From positions 1-5,976 of the IMG/VR virus record IMGVR_UViG_2703718823_000007: a stretch of 5,976 bases of DNA. One strand, 5' to 3'. Source of the DNA: a virus. Its lineage: Duplodnaviria > Heunggongvirae > Uroviricota > Caudoviricetes. The translations under genes and the position numbers were made by a program. The notes under the pieces are model-generated. The model had not been told where the DNA came from. It made no database searches and saw only the letters and a list, made by a program, of their open reading frames with translations. Positions 1 through 5,976 of the stretch are shown here, piece after piece. Position 1 is the stretch's first letter. Each line of letters begins with the position of its first letter.

Positions 1-2320
1 GCATTTCCGCCATCTCGTCCTTCAGCTTGCTGTTGTCAATCTCTGCCCACAACGCCTCTGCCAGATGTGTTTTTCCTATCTTTTCCCGGAAAAACTCCAG
101 ATAGCCCGCAGCATCATCACTGGCCCGTCCACTGGCTTCAACAAACGCGGATTTACCCACCAGATTGACGCTGCGCACGTAAAACCAGAAAACTTTCCCG
201 GGTTTAATCTGGCTGCCGGAGACGCTCCACTGGCTGCCTGTCCCCAGATAACGGGCAGAGGTTTCCACCTGTGCGGCGTCTGCAATTTTTGCCTCCGAAA
301 ACCAGAACTCAAACTGCACCGTCGGGTCATACACCGCAAGACGCGGTACCGCCGTTATCTGAAAATACCCCGGCGTCAGTTCAACACCGGCAGGCGCTGC
401 CGGTGCGTTAATCCGGAACGTGGTGGTGGCGGGTTCGCCCTGCTGGCCATAGCTGTTAATCGCCCTGACCGTCAGGGTGTATTCCCCGAGAGGCAGGCCA
501 CTGAAACGGTGCTCCGTATCGGCAGTGATGGCGGTGGTCAGCAGGCGGCTGTTCTCACCGCTTCCACTGGTCAGGCGCAGACTGAAGCGCACGCCCTTCA
601 CCACCCTCGGCGTGTCCCATTTCGCCAGCGCCAGATACTGGCTGTCAGCTGCGCTAACCTCCACCGTGAGGTGCTGTACTGCCGGTGGGATAACGCTGTT
701 CAGGGTGCCTGACTGCGGCTCAAAGCGGGCTCCGTTATCCACAATGGCTTCTTTTTCCGGTACGTGCTGCACCGCCGTGATGGCAAAGGTGCCGTCCGTG
801 TTTTCCCGGATGGAGACACAGCGGAACAGGCGACGGCGCAGTGACGGCAGGGAGAGTCCCCACACCCCGTATGTCTCCACGCCATCCGGCAAGGGGCTGA
901 CCTGTATCCGGTCCGGCGCGGGGTGTGCGGTGATGTCCACACTCACCGGCTTACCGCTGCCGTTAATCAGGTTCACCGTCAATGTACCTGTCCCCGGAAG
1001 TGTCACTTCACGGTCCAGCGTCAGGGTGCGGGTGGCAGCATCAATGGACAGGACACGTCCGCCGGTCAGGGTCCCGGCATAGTCATTATCACAGATTTCA
1101 ATAATGTCACCGGGTGTGTGCCGCAGCCCCTGTGACCCGAGTGTGAAATCCACCGTCTGCGTTTCCAGCAGTTCTGTCTTTATCACCCACAGCCCGGCAC
1201 GGAAGGTGTACGGCCACACCACATCCGACGGGCGGTCCTGAACGAACGTCAGCGTCTGGCCGTTCCATACCGGCATACAGCGCATCGCCGAGCAGAAATC
1301 ACTGAGAACGTCCCACACCTTACGCTGTTGTGCCAGGTACGCATTAAAGGTCATCCGCGGCTCTGTGCCCCCGAAACCATCCGGGACCGTCTGGTCGCAG
1401 TACTGCCCGATGGCATACAGCGCCCACTTGTCCACATCCGCCGCCCCCAGACGTTTTCCCATGCCGTAGCGCGGGTGAGTCAGCATGTCCCACAGACACC
1501 AGGCCGGGTTGTTGCTGTATGCCGGTTTCAGACTGCCGTCCCAGATACCACTGTACGTGCGTTTTTCCGGGTCATAGTTTGACGGCACCTGGATGATGCG
1601 ACCGCGGATATGGTAGTTCACCGTCATCTGCTGGCCGCCGAACTGCTCCGCATCCACCTGCAGCCCCACAATGGCCGTGTTCGGGTAGCACTGTTTTACA
1701 TCGATGATTTCGGTGTATGACGACCAGAGCGTCTTATTCTGCAGCTGGTCCGTGGTGCTGTCCGCCGTCTCCCTGACCATCCGGATGTTAAAGGGGCGGG
1801 GAGGCAGATTATCCAGAATCACCGAGGCCAGGAACTGTGAGGTGGTCTTGCCGTTAATGGTGACATCCTTTTCTGTCACCCAGTTACCGTTACGCTGTAA
1901 CTGAATCAGCAGACGGACAGAGGACGGATTACGGTCACCCTTTGACGTGGTCTCCACCAGTGACTGCACCCCGAAGGTCACCCGCAGGCGGTCAATGTTC
2001 GCTGACGTAATGGTGCGTGTCACCGGTTTTGCCTTCGTCACTTCCACACCCAGTACAGTTTCAGCTCCGGAGGACTCAAAGCCTTCCGGTGGTGTCTGCT
2101 CCTGCTCCCCGGCGCGCCAGACCGCGGTCACACCGTGTATCACGGGATTACCGTCCGTGTCCGTCAGCGGGGTTTTGTTCACCAGAATACTCTGCAGGCC
2201 TTTCACCGGACCTTCAATGGGTCCCTCACCAATCGCATCAATCACGCTCATCATCTGCGTGGATTTGAGATTATCCTTCGCCTCACGAGGCGTGTGTGCC
2301 TTACCGCCACCTTTTCCCAT
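1..2320 (-). CDS. J: Tail tip / host specificity protein J (central tail fibre), N-terminal 773 codons; partial, the 3' end including the receptor-binding C-terminus lies beyond the left edge of the window
   Basis: Hand translation of the minus strand from ATG at 2320..2318 gives [38 protein letters not shown]... and stays open with no stop down to position 1 (last residues ...[19 protein letters not shown]). Long blocks match my recollection of lambda gpJ (e.g. [118 protein letters not shown]). GGGGAAGG Shine-Dalgarno-like sequence 5 nt upstream of the ATG. Absent from the ORF track only because it has no stop codon in the window. Confidence 0.9.
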
Positions 2321-2423
2321 ACAGCCTTCCCCTGAATAAATTAACCGCCACTTGCCATTCCGTACAGAAGTCGGATATCCTTCGCCCGAAAAGCATGAAA
2401 CACATTTCTGCCATGCTAAACAG

Positions 2424-2459
2424 AAACCCCGGTATCAGCAGATACCGGGGTTTTCTTTC
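2424..2459. terminator. Putative bidirectional intrinsic terminator: perfect 13-bp inverted repeat with 4-nt loop, flanked by A-tract and T-tract
   Basis: AAACCCCGGTATC (2424..2436), loop AGCA, GATACCGGGGTTT (2441..2453), followed by TTTTCTTTC on the plus strand. On the minus strand the same stem is followed by TTTCTGTTT. Confidence 0.5.
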
Positions 2460-2525
2460 ATGCCCACCGATAATCCTGTTGGTTAAAACCGGTAATGGCA
2501 TAAAAATTCTGAATATCTTCACATT

Positions 2526-2553
2526 TTCACACACTGACTGTGGCGCTTATAAT
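2526..2553 (+). promoter_or_regulatory. Putative sigma70-type promoter on the plus strand
   Basis: -35 TTCACA (2526..2531; 5/6 match to TTGACA), 16-nt spacer, -10 TATAAT (2548..2553; 6/6). Predicted start near 2560. Orientation is opposite to the phage late genes. Confidence 0.35.
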
Positions 2554-2559
2554 TTCGCT

Positions 2560-2657
2560 GCGTTAGTGTTTTTTTGCCCGAGTAACAAAAACAACTCCTT
2601 AACATTAATCTTCATTTGTCTGTCCCCGCAGCTCCGCGATCACTGCGGGATTTTTTT
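2560..2657 (+). ncRNA. Candidate small RNA of roughly 100 nt, hypothetical, bounded by the promoter-like element and the downstream hairpin plus T7
   Basis: Inferred only from promoter-like and terminator-like signals in the correct order and orientation on the plus strand. No plus-strand ORF with a ribosome-binding site lies between them. The body contains a CUCCUU anti-Shine-Dalgarno-like motif (2595..2600). Confidence 0.2.
2624..2657 (+). terminator. Putative plus-strand intrinsic terminator
   Basis: GC-rich stem CCCGCAG (2625..2631) / CTGCGGG (2643..2649) with an 11-nt loop, immediately followed by TTTTTTT (2651..2657). On the minus strand the hairpin is preceded, not followed, by the homopolymer, so it is plus-strand specific. 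It lies 6 nt from the I stop codon. Confidence 0.4.
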
Positions 2658-2662
2658 ATGTT

Positions 2663-3343
2663 TTATCCCTGTCGACCAATAACCACCACCTTTCCGTCTC
2701 CGCCTTCATCACGGGTGCTGATGTCCTGAGAGATACGTCGTGAACCAACCAGCATTTCACCGTAGGGCACCGGCATCGGGTTGCCCTGGGCAATCATGTT
2801 GTCCAGTGAGGAAAAATACGTGTTCTGTCTGCCGTTATCCGTTGCGCGGTAATCCGGTGTTTTTGCCTTCGGGGCCAGCATCTGGGCCACACCGCCCAGT
2901 ATCATGCTGGCACCCAGTGAAAACAGCATCGTGGTGGCAGAAAAACCACCGGCTGCCAGGGCTGAACCCCATAACGCCATTGATGCCCCGGCAGTGAAGA
3001 AAGAGCCCACGATGGCTGCCGCCCCCAGCACAATCTGCAGTCCACCCTTTCCGGCCCCGGCCAGTCGCGGCACAATATGGATGACCGTTCCCTCACCCAG
3101 CTGTTCGTGAAGACGGGCGTACACCGCCTCCGGTGCCGTGTCATAACCGGCAATACGTATCTGGTACCAGCCTTCGTTCATCTGAAGGCGAAAGCCCGGC
3201 ATCTGCATCGACAGGGCGCGAATGGCTTCCGCTGCCGTGTTCACATACAGGCTGAGGCGGCGGCCAAATCGTTGTAAATCCCCGTGAAGGCAGATGCGGA
3301 CCAGTGGCGGTGACGCCAGACAGAATGCGTTCGTCGTTGCCAT
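2663..3343 (-). CDS. I: Tail assembly protein I (ubiquitin-like beta-grasp N-terminal domain, Gly/Ala-rich hydrophobic C-terminal half), 226 aa
   Basis: ATG at 3343..3341, stop TAA at 2665..2663. The translation MATTNAFCLASPPLVRICLHGDLQRFGRRL...SLDNMIAQGN...VVVIGRQG matches recalled lambda gpI along its length. The 5' end overlaps the 3' end of K by 103 nt in another frame, as in lambda. Confidence 0.9.
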   Translation of the reverse strand: MATTNAFCLASPPLVRICLHGDLQRFGRRLSLYVNTAAEAIRALSMQMPGFRLQMNEGWYQIRIAGYDTAPEAVYARLHEQLGEGTVIHIVPRLAGAGKGGLQIVLGAAAIVGSFFTAGASMALWGSALAAGGFSATTMLFSLGASMILGGVAQMLAPKAKTPDYRATDNGRQNTYFSSLDNMIAQGNPMPVPYGEMLVGSRRISQDISTRDEGGDGKVVVIGRQG

Positions 3344-3984
3344 TTTTCGGAATAACTCTCCCGTTTACTCAGTTGTTCAGGAATATGGTGAAGCAGTTCA
3401 CCGTTGCCGCAGTAAATGGCGGCATGATTAGCCACCGATGCGCCGAAGCAGCACAGCAGGATATCGCCCGGCAGTGCAGAGGACAGGGGCACCCGGTAAA
3501 AGCCCGTTGCCTCCATATTGTCCAGGTAAAGGTTCTGACCGTTGCACCACCAGTCATCCTCACGGTGAAAATCCGGCATATCAATGCCTGCCAGATGGTA
3601 TGCATCCCGGAACAGCGTGTAACAGTCCGTCACCCCGTGCGCAAAGCGCCGTCCTGTCAGATGTGGCACACAGCGGAATTTGTGAATGTCACCCCGGCAG
3701 ACCAGCCACCAGGGCAGTGCGCTTTTTATCTGCAGCCGCCGGTCAGCCTCGCTCAGCCAGGGCAGCCCACCGGGATGACTGTGGACCAGTGCCACAATCT
3801 CCCCCGACATCTCTGCCCGCAGCCAGTCTTCCGGTGCGATACGAAAATACGCCTCAGGCTCTGCAGAGATATTCACGCACGGCTGGTACTGGTTGCCCTC
3901 CGGCGTGCTTATCACGAAGCCGCACGACTCCGCAGGCGCACACCGCCGGGCATGCGCCAGAATCGCTGATTCAGTCTGTGTCAT
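3241..3984 (-). CDS. K: Tail assembly protein K (JAB/MPN metallopeptidase-like domain plus NlpC/P60-like domain), 247 aa with the start chosen at 3984
   Basis: Translation MTQTESAILAHARRC...HSHPGGLPWLSEAD...GVTDCYTLFRDAYH...LLHHIPEQLSKRESY... matches recalled lambda gpK. The ORF-track entry 3241..4245 extends upstream into L from a non-ATG start; I place the start at ATG 3984..3982, 10 nt after the L stop. It has no obvious Shine-Dalgarno sequence, so the exact start is uncertain (an internal ATG at 3810..3808 is the alternative). Confidence 0.85.
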   Translation of the reverse strand: MTQTESAILAHARRCAPAESCGFVISTPEGNQYQPCVNISAEPEAYFRIAPEDWLRAEMSGEIVALVHSHPGGLPWLSEADRRLQIKSALPWWLVCRGDIHKFRCVPHLTGRRFAHGVTDCYTLFRDAYHLAGIDMPDFHREDDWWCNGQNLYLDNMEATGFYRVPLSSALPGDILLCCFGASVANHAAIYCGNGELLHHIPEQLSKRESYSEKWQRRTHSVWRHRHWSASAFTGIYNDLAAASACM

Positions 3985-3994
3985 AAACCGGGAT

Positions 3995-4693
3995 TTACTG
4001 CGAAAGTTTATTAATGGAAAGGAAACCGCCAAAATTGCCGACATTCCTGCGCAGTTCACACCCGCGCATGCACTTGCTGCATCTGTCCTTACGGATATCC
4101 GTGGTGGGTTTATCGAACTCATCCGCCACAGCCCCGCCCGTGTAACCACACTCATCAGAGCGGTAGGTCCACATACAGGTGTTCGCCAGCATGATGCGAC
4201 CGGGAAACAGCGCCCCGTCCGTCTCGGTCGGTGTGGCCAGCACAAACGAGGCCGTCATGGCCGTCAGCTCTGACATCTGCTCCACCACCCAGCGGTCACT
4301 CAGCTCCTGCTCCGGGTCCGCTTCCGGATTGCCCGCAACGAAATTCACCGCATCCAGAAAACGGGCATACACCCGGCGGCGGACCACCGTGGCCCCCACC
4401 AGACTCTGCAGGTCTTCCGCCATCCCGGTGACAAGGCCAAACAGATTGGACACCGTCAGCAACGGTCTGGCACTGCTGCCCTTTCCGTTCATCTCAAAGC
4501 CGCTGCCCTCAATCGGGTATGCCTCATACTTACGCCCCTGCCAGGTGACCGGCTCCCCTTTTTCATTCAGCTCATTACAGAAAAAATACCGCTCACCGCC
4601 CTGTACCGTCAGGTCGATTTCCCAGAGTACCACCCGCGGTGACTGCTCTGATTTAACCGACTCGTTCAGACTTTCTTCGTGAATATCCTGCAT
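3995..4693 (-). CDS. L: Minor tail protein L (tail tip complex), 232 aa
   Basis: ATG at 4693..4691 with AGGTGG Shine-Dalgarno-like sequence upstream, stop TAA at 3997..3995. Translation MQDIHEESLNESVKSEQSPRVVLWEIDLTVQGGERYFFCNE... with a Cys-rich C-terminus, consistent with lambda gpL. Confidence 0.92.
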   Translation of the reverse strand: MQDIHEESLNESVKSEQSPRVVLWEIDLTVQGGERYFFCNELNEKGEPVTWQGRKYEAYPIEGSGFEMNGKGSSARPLLTVSNLFGLVTGMAEDLQSLVGATVVRRRVYARFLDAVNFVAGNPEADPEQELSDRWVVEQMSELTAMTASFVLATPTETDGALFPGRIMLANTCMWTYRSDECGYTGGAVADEFDKPTTDIRKDRCSKCMRGCELRRNVGNFGGFLSINKLSQ

Positions 4694-5022
4694 CAGTTCA
4701 CCACCTGCTTAAACTCCGCGCTGAACTCAACGCGCAACATCCCGACCCGCGCAGACCACCCGGCACAGGTCACCTTTATCTGCCGGTATGCATAGGGTGG
4801 CTTCCACAAAAATGCCTTCCAGCCACCGTGCTCTGCCAGGAACGCTTCCAGATGCCGGGCCTCCTCCCGGGTCACGGAAAGCATCACCCGGTATGTTTTC
4901 AGGTCAGCATTCAGCCCTGCCGCCATACGCTGTGAGTACCCGTCACCAAAACGCACTTCACGCACCGATGGCTGCGAGTTCACCTCCATATCCGGTTTCA
5001 CTTTCCAGCGAAAGGTTTTCAT
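4693..5022 (-). CDS. M: Minor tail protein M, 109 aa
   Basis: ATG at 5022..5020 with GGGAG 7-8 nt upstream. Translation MKTFRWKVKPDMEVNSQPSVREVRFGDGYSQR...FLWKPPYAYRQIKVTCAGWSARVGMLRVEFSAEFKQVVN is near-identical in pattern to recalled lambda gpM. Its stop TGA overlaps the L start (TGATG). Confidence 0.92.
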   Translation of the reverse strand: MKTFRWKVKPDMEVNSQPSVREVRFGDGYSQRMAAGLNADLKTYRVMLSVTREEARHLEAFLAEHGGWKAFLWKPPYAYRQIKVTCAGWSARVGMLRVEFSAEFKQVVN

Positions 5023-5976
5023 CGCCCGCTCCCCGATAACAGACCGCCATCACGCAACTGCAGCCGGAGCTCATCCTGCGCACCTTTACGGGCCATCTCA
5101 TACACCGCTTTCATCAGCTGCGGCCCGGCCTGTCCGTTGATGCCGTCGTTCTGAATCACCACGTGATTGTTCTGATTAAAATTAATACCTTCCGCCCGCC
5201 GCATCTGCGCCGGACTTCCGGCAGCACCCACATACCCCCCTTCCGCATAGCCCCGCATCAGGCGGTACAGGTTCCCGACACCAATCCGGCTGGTTGCCTC
5301 CTTCGTGAAGACAAACTCCCCGCGGTGGACAATCCCCGCTGGCTCATATTTGCCACCGGTTCCCGTAAATCCCCCGGTCGCGAAATGGAAGTTCGCCGCC
5401 GCAGCCTGAATGGCCGTCCCCGTGGAAGCGGATGCGCCACCACCGAAAGCACCACCAATGGCGCTGCCGATACGCCCGACAATCCCCACCATCGCCTGCT
5501 TCAGAAAAATCTCTGTCAGCATGGAGAGCACGGAACGGGTGAAACCACGCCAGTTCTGTTCGCTGCCGGTCAGCATCGCTGCCAGATTCTGTGCAATACC
5601 GTCAAAGGTCTGCGTGGCCGCGCTTTTAACCTGCGAAAAACTGTCCGTCGCACTTTCCGCCCACTCGCCCCAGCCGGACTTCAGACCCGCCATCCAGCTT
5701 CCACGAAGCTGCTCCTCCGCAGACCAGGTGTTCTTCAGTGCAGATGTGGCCTTCGCCAGCGCATCCGGATTATCACCGTACACGTCACGAAGGCGCTGCT
5801 CTTCCGACTCCCGCTGCGCCTGACGGTCGGTGAGGCCGCGGGCTTTTGCGCTGATGGCGGCCTGCTTCGCGCTCTGCTGCTGTTCAAACCGCGCCGCCTG
5901 CTGTGCCAGCTCATTCAGCCGTTTCTGGTGTTCAACCTTGTCGCCCAGGTCAGCCAGCTGGCGTTTGTACTCCAGC
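5019..5976 (-). CDS. H: Tail tape measure protein H, C-terminal ~318 codons; partial, the 5' end lies beyond the right edge of the window
   Basis: The minus-strand frame is open from the window edge (LEYKRQLADLGDKVEHQKRLNELAQQ...) to stop TGA at 5021..5019. The C-terminus ...YEPAGIVHRGEFVFTKEATSRIGVGNLYRLMRGYAEGGYVG...NNHVVIQNDG...MARKGAQDE...RDGGLLSGSGR matches the recalled lambda gpH C-terminus. The track start at 5783 is an internal GTG, not the true start. Confidence 0.9.
   Translation of the reverse strand, partial: LEYKRQLADLGDKVEHQKRLNELAQQAARFEQQQSAKQAAISAKARGLTDRQAQRESEEQRLRDVYGDNPDALAKATSALKNTWSAEEQLRGSWMAGLKSGWGEWAESATDSFSQVKSAATQTFDGIAQNLAAMLTGSEQNWRGFTRSVLSMLTEIFLKQAMVGIVGRIGSAIGGAFGGGASASTGTAIQAAAANFHFATGGFTGTGGKYEPAGIVHRGEFVFTKEATSRIGVGNLYRLMRGYAEGGYVGAAGSPAQMRRAEGINFNQNNHVVIQNDGINGQAGPQLMKAVYEMARKGAQDELRLQLRDGGLLSGSGR

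Follow-up and report, generated by a model that had tools for sequence, protein, structure and literature searches.

A deletion-insertion was identified in the gene for the tail-tip protein J of a lambda-like E. coli prophage, in a stretch of 5,976 nucleotides that was analyzed as a whole and that we refer to as the window. The change cuts the conserved hub core of J without disturbing the reading frame. We consider it probable that this private and recent lesion inactivates the protein and represents ordinary prophage decay, a view of its effect that is based on sequence conservation and structure models.

The window covers the distal end of a tail operon of the lambda type on the minus strand, with the genes in the order H-M-L-K-I-J (Table 1). 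Over its entire length it was 92% to 97% identical to J-bearing lambdoid prophages and Stx-converting phages of E. coli, and the closest match among 5,426 complete E. coli genomes was 96.3% identical overall. Within the window, J was the sole affected gene, and the genes I, K, L, M and the 3' part of H were identical to those of relatives. The relatives with identical H (C-terminal part), M, L, K, and I contained terminase, portal, head, and tail genes in the 10-kb flank upstream.

Table 1. Coordinates of the genes in the window and of the lesion in J.
Feature	Position	Strand	Remarks
J, 5' part (tip attachment/central tail fibre/hub protein)	1..2320	-	ATG 2320-2318, 773 codons (2320..2), left end open
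Retained block after the junction, window J residues 374-388 (lambda 446-460)	1157..1201	-	Rest of the long helix; first turn of the helix and AFGCTSRGQA deleted
Deletion junction	1203..1204		AA on the plus strand (TT on the coding strand) in place of 218 nt of the parental gene
Retained block before the junction, window J residues 359-372	1205..1246	-	Takes in model strand 367-372
I-J intergenic spacer, 342 nt	2321..2662		Variable between relatives, outside the deletion
I, tail tip assembly/plug protein, 193 aa, intact	2663..3244	-	PF06805; exact protein on many E. coli contigs
K, JAB/NlpC-P60 peptidase, 247 aa, intact	3241..3984	-	PF14464, PF00877; DNA 100% identical to contig L013, 247-aa gene called there
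L, hub HDI and Fe-S domain protein, 232 aa, intact	3995..4693	-	PF05100
M, distal tail protein, 109 aa, intact	4693..5022	-	PF05939
H, 3' part, tape measure protein	5019..5976	-	Right end open; collinear with the 868-aa tape measure protein gene of L013

Sequence, synteny, and flanking domains all place the J protein of the window in the lambda gpJ family, although it lacks a complete hub core. A phmmer search gave an E-value of 0 and 1281 bits to chain J of 8IYK, and alignments of the window J showed 73% identity to lambda J and 97% to the J protein of PhiR5_1. Lambda gpJ, for which several structures are available (PDB 8IYK, 8IYL, 8K35, 8XCG, 8XCI, 9E7M), shares with the window the gene order H-M-L-K-I-J and the same Pfam domains in the same order, that is, FNIII-A, the hub core, and 2 FNIII/Ig domains. 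The first of these was identified in the window J as PF24801 (the N-terminal HDII-insertion with FNIII-A; 140.6 bits, residues 86-207), and the 2 FNIII/Ig domains after the hub as PF24421 and PF24489 (139.6 and 132.8 bits, residues 537-640 and 642-744). The J gene runs past the left end of the window after codon 773, and the otherwise identical parent carries PF09327 (central fibre) and a C-terminus that is not of the lambda type.

The spacer between the I and J genes is also different, with 342 nt in the window versus 60 nt in lambda. Its J-proximal part, at window positions ~2330-2500, was hypervariable between relatives, and the window and its closest kin contained about 100 extra nucleotides in the spacer, including a near-perfect hairpin, GAAACCCCGGTATC-AGCA-GATACCGGGGTTTTC. 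On the plus strand of the spacer, antisense to the tail genes and especially at positions 2526-2553 and 2633-2658, we noted a promoter-like site close to the consensus (TTCACA-16-TATAAT, 11/12) and, about 80 nt downstream, a terminator-like hairpin followed by T7, which was kept in 4 of the 4 relatives aligned. These elements could represent a small moron-like RNA of about 100 nt. The spacer had no match in Rfam, and its identification as an AgvB/AsxR anti-sRNA was rejected because there was no match and because AgvB/AsxR lie at the PR' moron site.

The alignments of the window J to the J proteins of lambda (NC_001416, 15505-18903) and PhiR5_1 contained a single gap of exactly 72 residues. Residues 1-372 of the query were aligned by phmmer with residues 1-372 of the lambda gpJ chain in 8IYK, and residues 373-762 with residues 445-836, such that lambda residues 373-444 are absent from the window J and His445 is replaced by Phe. 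An earlier reading of the window, made from the sequence only, had proposed an in-frame shortening of J by about 70 residues relative to lambda J, with the junction near 1199..1230 and extra residues in lambda gpJ at this point. The alignment and phmmer results agree with all of this, and place the junction at positions 1203-1204, flanked by 1202 and 1205. The peptide that this reading had quoted is present in the minus-strand translation from ATG 2320.

In the minimal description, coding nucleotides 1117-1334 of a J gene of 1,176 codons have been deleted and TT inserted, with a net loss of 216 nt or 72 codons. The plus strand at the junction reads ...GGCACGG (ending at 1202), AA (1203-1204), and GGTGTACGG (from 1205); in relatives, these flanks are 218 nt apart. 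The junction codon TTC encodes Phe373, which takes the place of His445, and the reading frame is kept. The deletion is a definite change with respect to the parental gene and not a statistical signal.

The gap falls inside the domain PF13550 (Phage-tail_3), which represents the hub core, with the end of HDII, HDIV, and HDIII, and has 164 profile positions. The parental protein scored 129.6 bits over profile positions 2-159 versus 46.7 bits in 2 stretches for the window J, the best remaining of which covered profile positions 113-159; a complete hub core is thereby absent from the window J. With a full-length relative as the query against 1.84 billion cluster representatives, 7,713 homologues were obtained, and the best 150 of these 7,713 were used for the comparison. 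Residues 360-460 were spanned by 119 of the 150, and every one of these 119 diverse representatives, with identities down to about 33%, kept 67 to 72 of the 72 lost residues. The best-conserved motif of the 170-residue region, AFGCTSRGQA.R.G.W at residues 435-450, is cut by the lesion, with residues 435-444 deleted and residue 445 changed. Furthermore, when the 170-amino acid region was searched against phage genomes with tblastn, at least 80% of it was covered in 1,732 of 1,737 records. The phage matches listed were single-piece matches of about 470 to 510 nt, and included T1 as well as Klebsiella, Ralstonia, Burkholderia, and Synechococcus phages. The possible objection that the short form is common in functional J proteins clearly fails against both the representatives and the phage records.

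An AlphaFold2 model of a full-length relative (P0004) had pLDDT values of 85 to 95 over residues 10-600, and its superposition on chain F of 8XCG, a solved structure of the lambda gpJ hub, gave a TM-score of 0.88 and an rmsd of 4.0 Å. In this model, the strand at residues 367-372 is retained, whereas the strands at 386-389, 398-405, and 411-418, the helix at 420-426, and the strand at 430-434 are deleted. The long helix at 441-457 has lost its first turn, and is followed by the strands at 460-466 and 478-482, the OB insert, and the strand at 570-578. The lost segment corresponds in total to 4 strands, 1 helix, and the start of the long helix. The model strands 478-482 and 570-578 agree with the published strands β24 (477-482) and β25 (570-578), between which the OB insert of gpJ is located at residues 483-569 (PMC10721106).

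According to Ge and Wang, HDIV has the tail-tube fold, with HDIII in place of the β3-β4 loop and the OB domain carried on the β5-β6.1 loop (PMC11101478). [quoted passage not shown] The hub domains of J dock gpL, gpI, and gpM (PMC10721106, PMC11101478). Residue limits for HDII, HDIII, and HDIV of gpJ were not found in the literature searched, and the assignment of the lost segment to HDIV and HDIII is for this reason an inferred one. From the secondary structure of the model and the published topology, we infer that the deletion takes strands β2-β3 of HDIV and most of HDIII, with the last HDIII helix left. The deletion is not a clean excision of one domain.

Exact look-up of the L protein of the window led to E. 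coli draft contigs with the same prophage type. One of these (L013; GCA_043606725.1, contig DAZGWL010000154.1) was 100.000% identical to window positions 1-1202 and 1205-5976, such that all 5,974 positions other than the 2 junction bases were the same, and encoded a full J protein of 1,176 amino acids. Four further contigs differed from the window by one base outside the lesion. All of the related contigs that reached the site contained the 218 nt, and those that covered the whole gene encoded J proteins of 1,157 or 1,176 amino acids. Likewise, exact look-ups of the L and I proteins of the window returned solely contigs with full-length J. The full-length J protein of 1,176 amino acids (e.g. 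HAH8655486.1) was found on 5 contigs in a collection of 15 billion proteins; outside the lesion, the full-length J of this prophage type in E. coli drafts is identical to the window J, and it has the 72 codons that the window has lost. Because the undeleted parent has accumulated zero substitutions over 5,974 nt, the deletion must be very recent.

The C-terminus of J was mosaic among otherwise near-identical prophages (L013:7585-11115 versus L006 and L019). In one form, J has 1,176 amino acids, lacks a receptor-binding domain of the lambda type, and precedes a gene for a fibre protein of 499 amino acids; in the other, it has 1,157 amino acids and PF12421, with lom as the next gene. The point of exchange falls in the portion of J past window position 1202, since L006 was identical to the window over 1205-5976 and only 94.7% identical over 2-1202. 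It was also noted that the tail end of the prophage adjoins the hyaABCD hydrogenase operon in 4 of the relatives (L004, L005, L008, and L014), with a tRNA-Ser also annotated there in L004. The E. coli KTE1 scaffold KE136575.1 (L015, 7388-17983) contained duplicated and scrambled fragments of J, K, I, and lom, including a chimeric "J" of 1,067 amino acids with 2 copies of the hub core. This arrangement is probably a draft-genome misassembly of multi-copy lambdoid tail genes.

A query that spanned the junction had no one-piece match in the 5,426 complete E. coli genomes, in which each match over both flanks was split by an additional 216 nt. The junction was also absent from 50,697 phage records (INPHARED), from the IMG/VR search, from the JGI metagenomes, from the GTDB species representatives, and from 25 of 25 related loci. 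Neither the reconstructed J protein of 1,104 amino acids nor the partial product of 773 amino acids was found by exact look-up in the 15-billion-protein collection. A 20-mer scan for the junction in GTDB gave 3 matches (in Bryobacteraceae, Streptomyces, and an Actinomycetota MAG), all in unrelated high-GC genomes, and these were taken as chance matches. The KTE1 protein P0001 (1,067 amino acids), which had the top bit score, was considered as a carrier of the deletion but rejected, because the full segment is kept on a scrambled scaffold with duplicated J segments.

The deleted allele is private to the source of the window. Since the junction is shared by no other sequence and the parent is 100% identical elsewhere, we regard the deletion as a private, recent lesion and not as a trait of a lineage. 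The sequence-only reading had offered a lineage-specific domain loss as one explanation. This proposal was not supported: no collection searched held another copy of the junction, the parent matches the other 5,974 nt in full (100%), and the deletion takes the middle of the PF13550 hub core without following a domain boundary.

The same isolation of the allele raises the question of whether it is a natural chromosomal allele at all, given that the rest of the window is base for base identical to public contigs and that 2 untemplated bases are present at the junction. The junction could instead have arisen through an error in sequencing or assembly, from a minority variant that the assembler fixed, or by deliberate engineering or editing. 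J is present in multiple copies in E. coli, with up to 14 places per genome in the whole-window search, and these genes do become scrambled in draft assemblies, one case being the KTE1 scaffold and its duplicated J, K, and I pieces. However, the breakpoints offer no repeat for an assembler to collapse, and a collapse at the shared CACC would lose 220 nt. The k-mers across the junction are new sequence that must exist in the reads, and a simple cut-and-join edit at codon boundaries would not leave a filler of 2 bp. We consider an artefactual or engineered origin unlikely.

The 2 bases at the junction match neither flank and are untemplated, and the only microhomology at the breakpoints consists of 4 nt, CACC, on both sides. 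Simple slippage between the CACC copies was rejected, since it predicts a frameshifting loss of 220 nt and not the observed junction; the 2-bp filler has no simple slippage explanation. The observed sequence is equivalent to the 220-nt CACC loss plus TTCC, or to in-frame losses of 36 and 180 nt that keep an internal TTCCG. This would allow for a history in 2 steps, in which a 220-bp deletion between the CACC copies was followed by a frame-restoring TTCC insertion under selection, or in which in-frame deletions of 36 and 180 bp left the TTCCG behind. The CACC at both breakpoints fits the former, for which the window is precisely the deletion plus TTCC, and the internal GGG-TTC-CGC could supply TTCCG for the latter, with CCG as microhomology for the second step. 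Such a history is nevertheless very improbable, because it requires 2 events with intermediates that were seen nowhere, because a first step of 36 bp would have had no microhomology, and because the flanks are otherwise unchanged. A frame-restoring event would moreover imply selection for a protein that conservation marks as crippled.

A confident AlphaFold2 model was also obtained for the shortened J protein, with pLDDT values of 85 to 90 around the junction and a TM-score of 0.75 to 8XCG. This superposition on the lambda hub, together with the preserved frame and the intact flanking domains, could be taken to mean that J was naturally shortened and is functional, either in a lineage that lacks part of the hub core and yet has a working tail tip, or in a tailocin-like particle. 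Hub proteins do gain and lose decorations such as the OB and HDII insertions (PMC13243795, PMC10721106). In the reduced hubs of Alishewanella phage LSH1 (gp25) and T5 (pb3), whole decoration domains (the OB insert, HDII-ins1/2) have been lost or gained (PMC13243795, PMC10721106), and even the minimal siphophage hub, that of phage LSH1, keeps HD I-IV (PMC13243795). However, while LSH1 gp25 and T5 pb3 keep HD II, III, and IV complete, the loss in the window J appears to lie within the HDIV/HDIII core, and its ends do not coincide with domain limits. A loss of decoration only was tested for the window J, and the lost part was found in the conserved core, with no representative or phage record that lacked the segment.

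The shortened J has no second example in any collection searched, and the length of the segment it has lost is constant in 119 of 119 representatives, with the region covered in 1,732 phage records. The lost part is core and contains the best-conserved motif, rather than being a decoration. Since no substitution separates the window from its full-length parent over 5,974 nt, the protein has not existed long enough to be tested by selection; the confident AlphaFold2 model of the shortened J carries no weight for its stability. We find a naturally shortened, functional J highly improbable. That the shortened J is a working protein, as a lambda-type tail tip without part of the HDIV/HDIII core or in a new role such as that of a dominant-negative subunit, seems to us extremely improbable. 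If it were dominant-negative, the short J would co-assemble with the near-identical J proteins made by lambdoid phages that reside in the same cell or enter it, and would disrupt the assembly of their tails. If the shortened J were functional, it would reveal an unexpected plasticity in a hub core of otherwise invariant length from E. coli to cyanophages.

Inactivation by decay remains the preferred explanation, and of the meanings put forward in the sequence-only reading, a decayed or altered tail tip is the one that best describes the cut in the conserved hub core of J. One recent event, or a tight pair of events, would have removed 218 bp from the J gene of a lambda-like E. coli prophage and left 2 bp in their place. 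The loss of the HDIV strands and of most of the small HDIII that is inserted in HDIV would hit the ring under gpM as well as the receptor-triggered gate. Because 4 strands, a helix, and the best-conserved motif are gone from the hub core, folding or trimer assembly should fail, and the shortened J would most likely be unable to fold or to build the trimer that serves as tail-tip initiator. The lambda tail assembly pathway starts with J, as established by genetics. A prophage with the shortened J would be expected to make no infectious tails by itself. The protein may still be stable, as the frame is kept and the lesion spares the domains on both sides, the HDII-insertion and FNIII-A at the N-terminus and OB and FNIII-1/2 downstream. 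The frame was presumably kept by chance and not by selection; since the event is recent and unique, and one in three deletions is in frame by chance, the preserved frame is not evidence of selection.

An independent lesion in J was observed in a prophage copy that was 94% to 99% identical to the window (L009; GCA_043586865.1, 12285-15822). This copy has a GTG start and a frameshift in J near codon 62, and no full-length J gene was called, which argues that J lesions are ordinary in such prophages. Defective morphogenesis genes are common in the prophages of O157 Sakai. Defective lambdoid prophages of E. coli likewise have one tail gene hit in a late operon that looks complete, with the difference that the lesion in the window J is in frame.

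The kind of event described here, prophage gene decay, is already known, and the window contains a defective allele of a known protein and no new architecture; the finding matters little beyond annotation. For annotation, an in-frame lesion of this kind means that an automatic procedure would call an apparently intact, slightly short host-specificity protein, which is a caution for predictors of prophage intactness and for inferences about host range from J sequences. The lesion looks like the first hit on an otherwise intact tail module and, with one lesion and zero other changes in about 6 kb, would represent a clean and datable first step of prophage decay.
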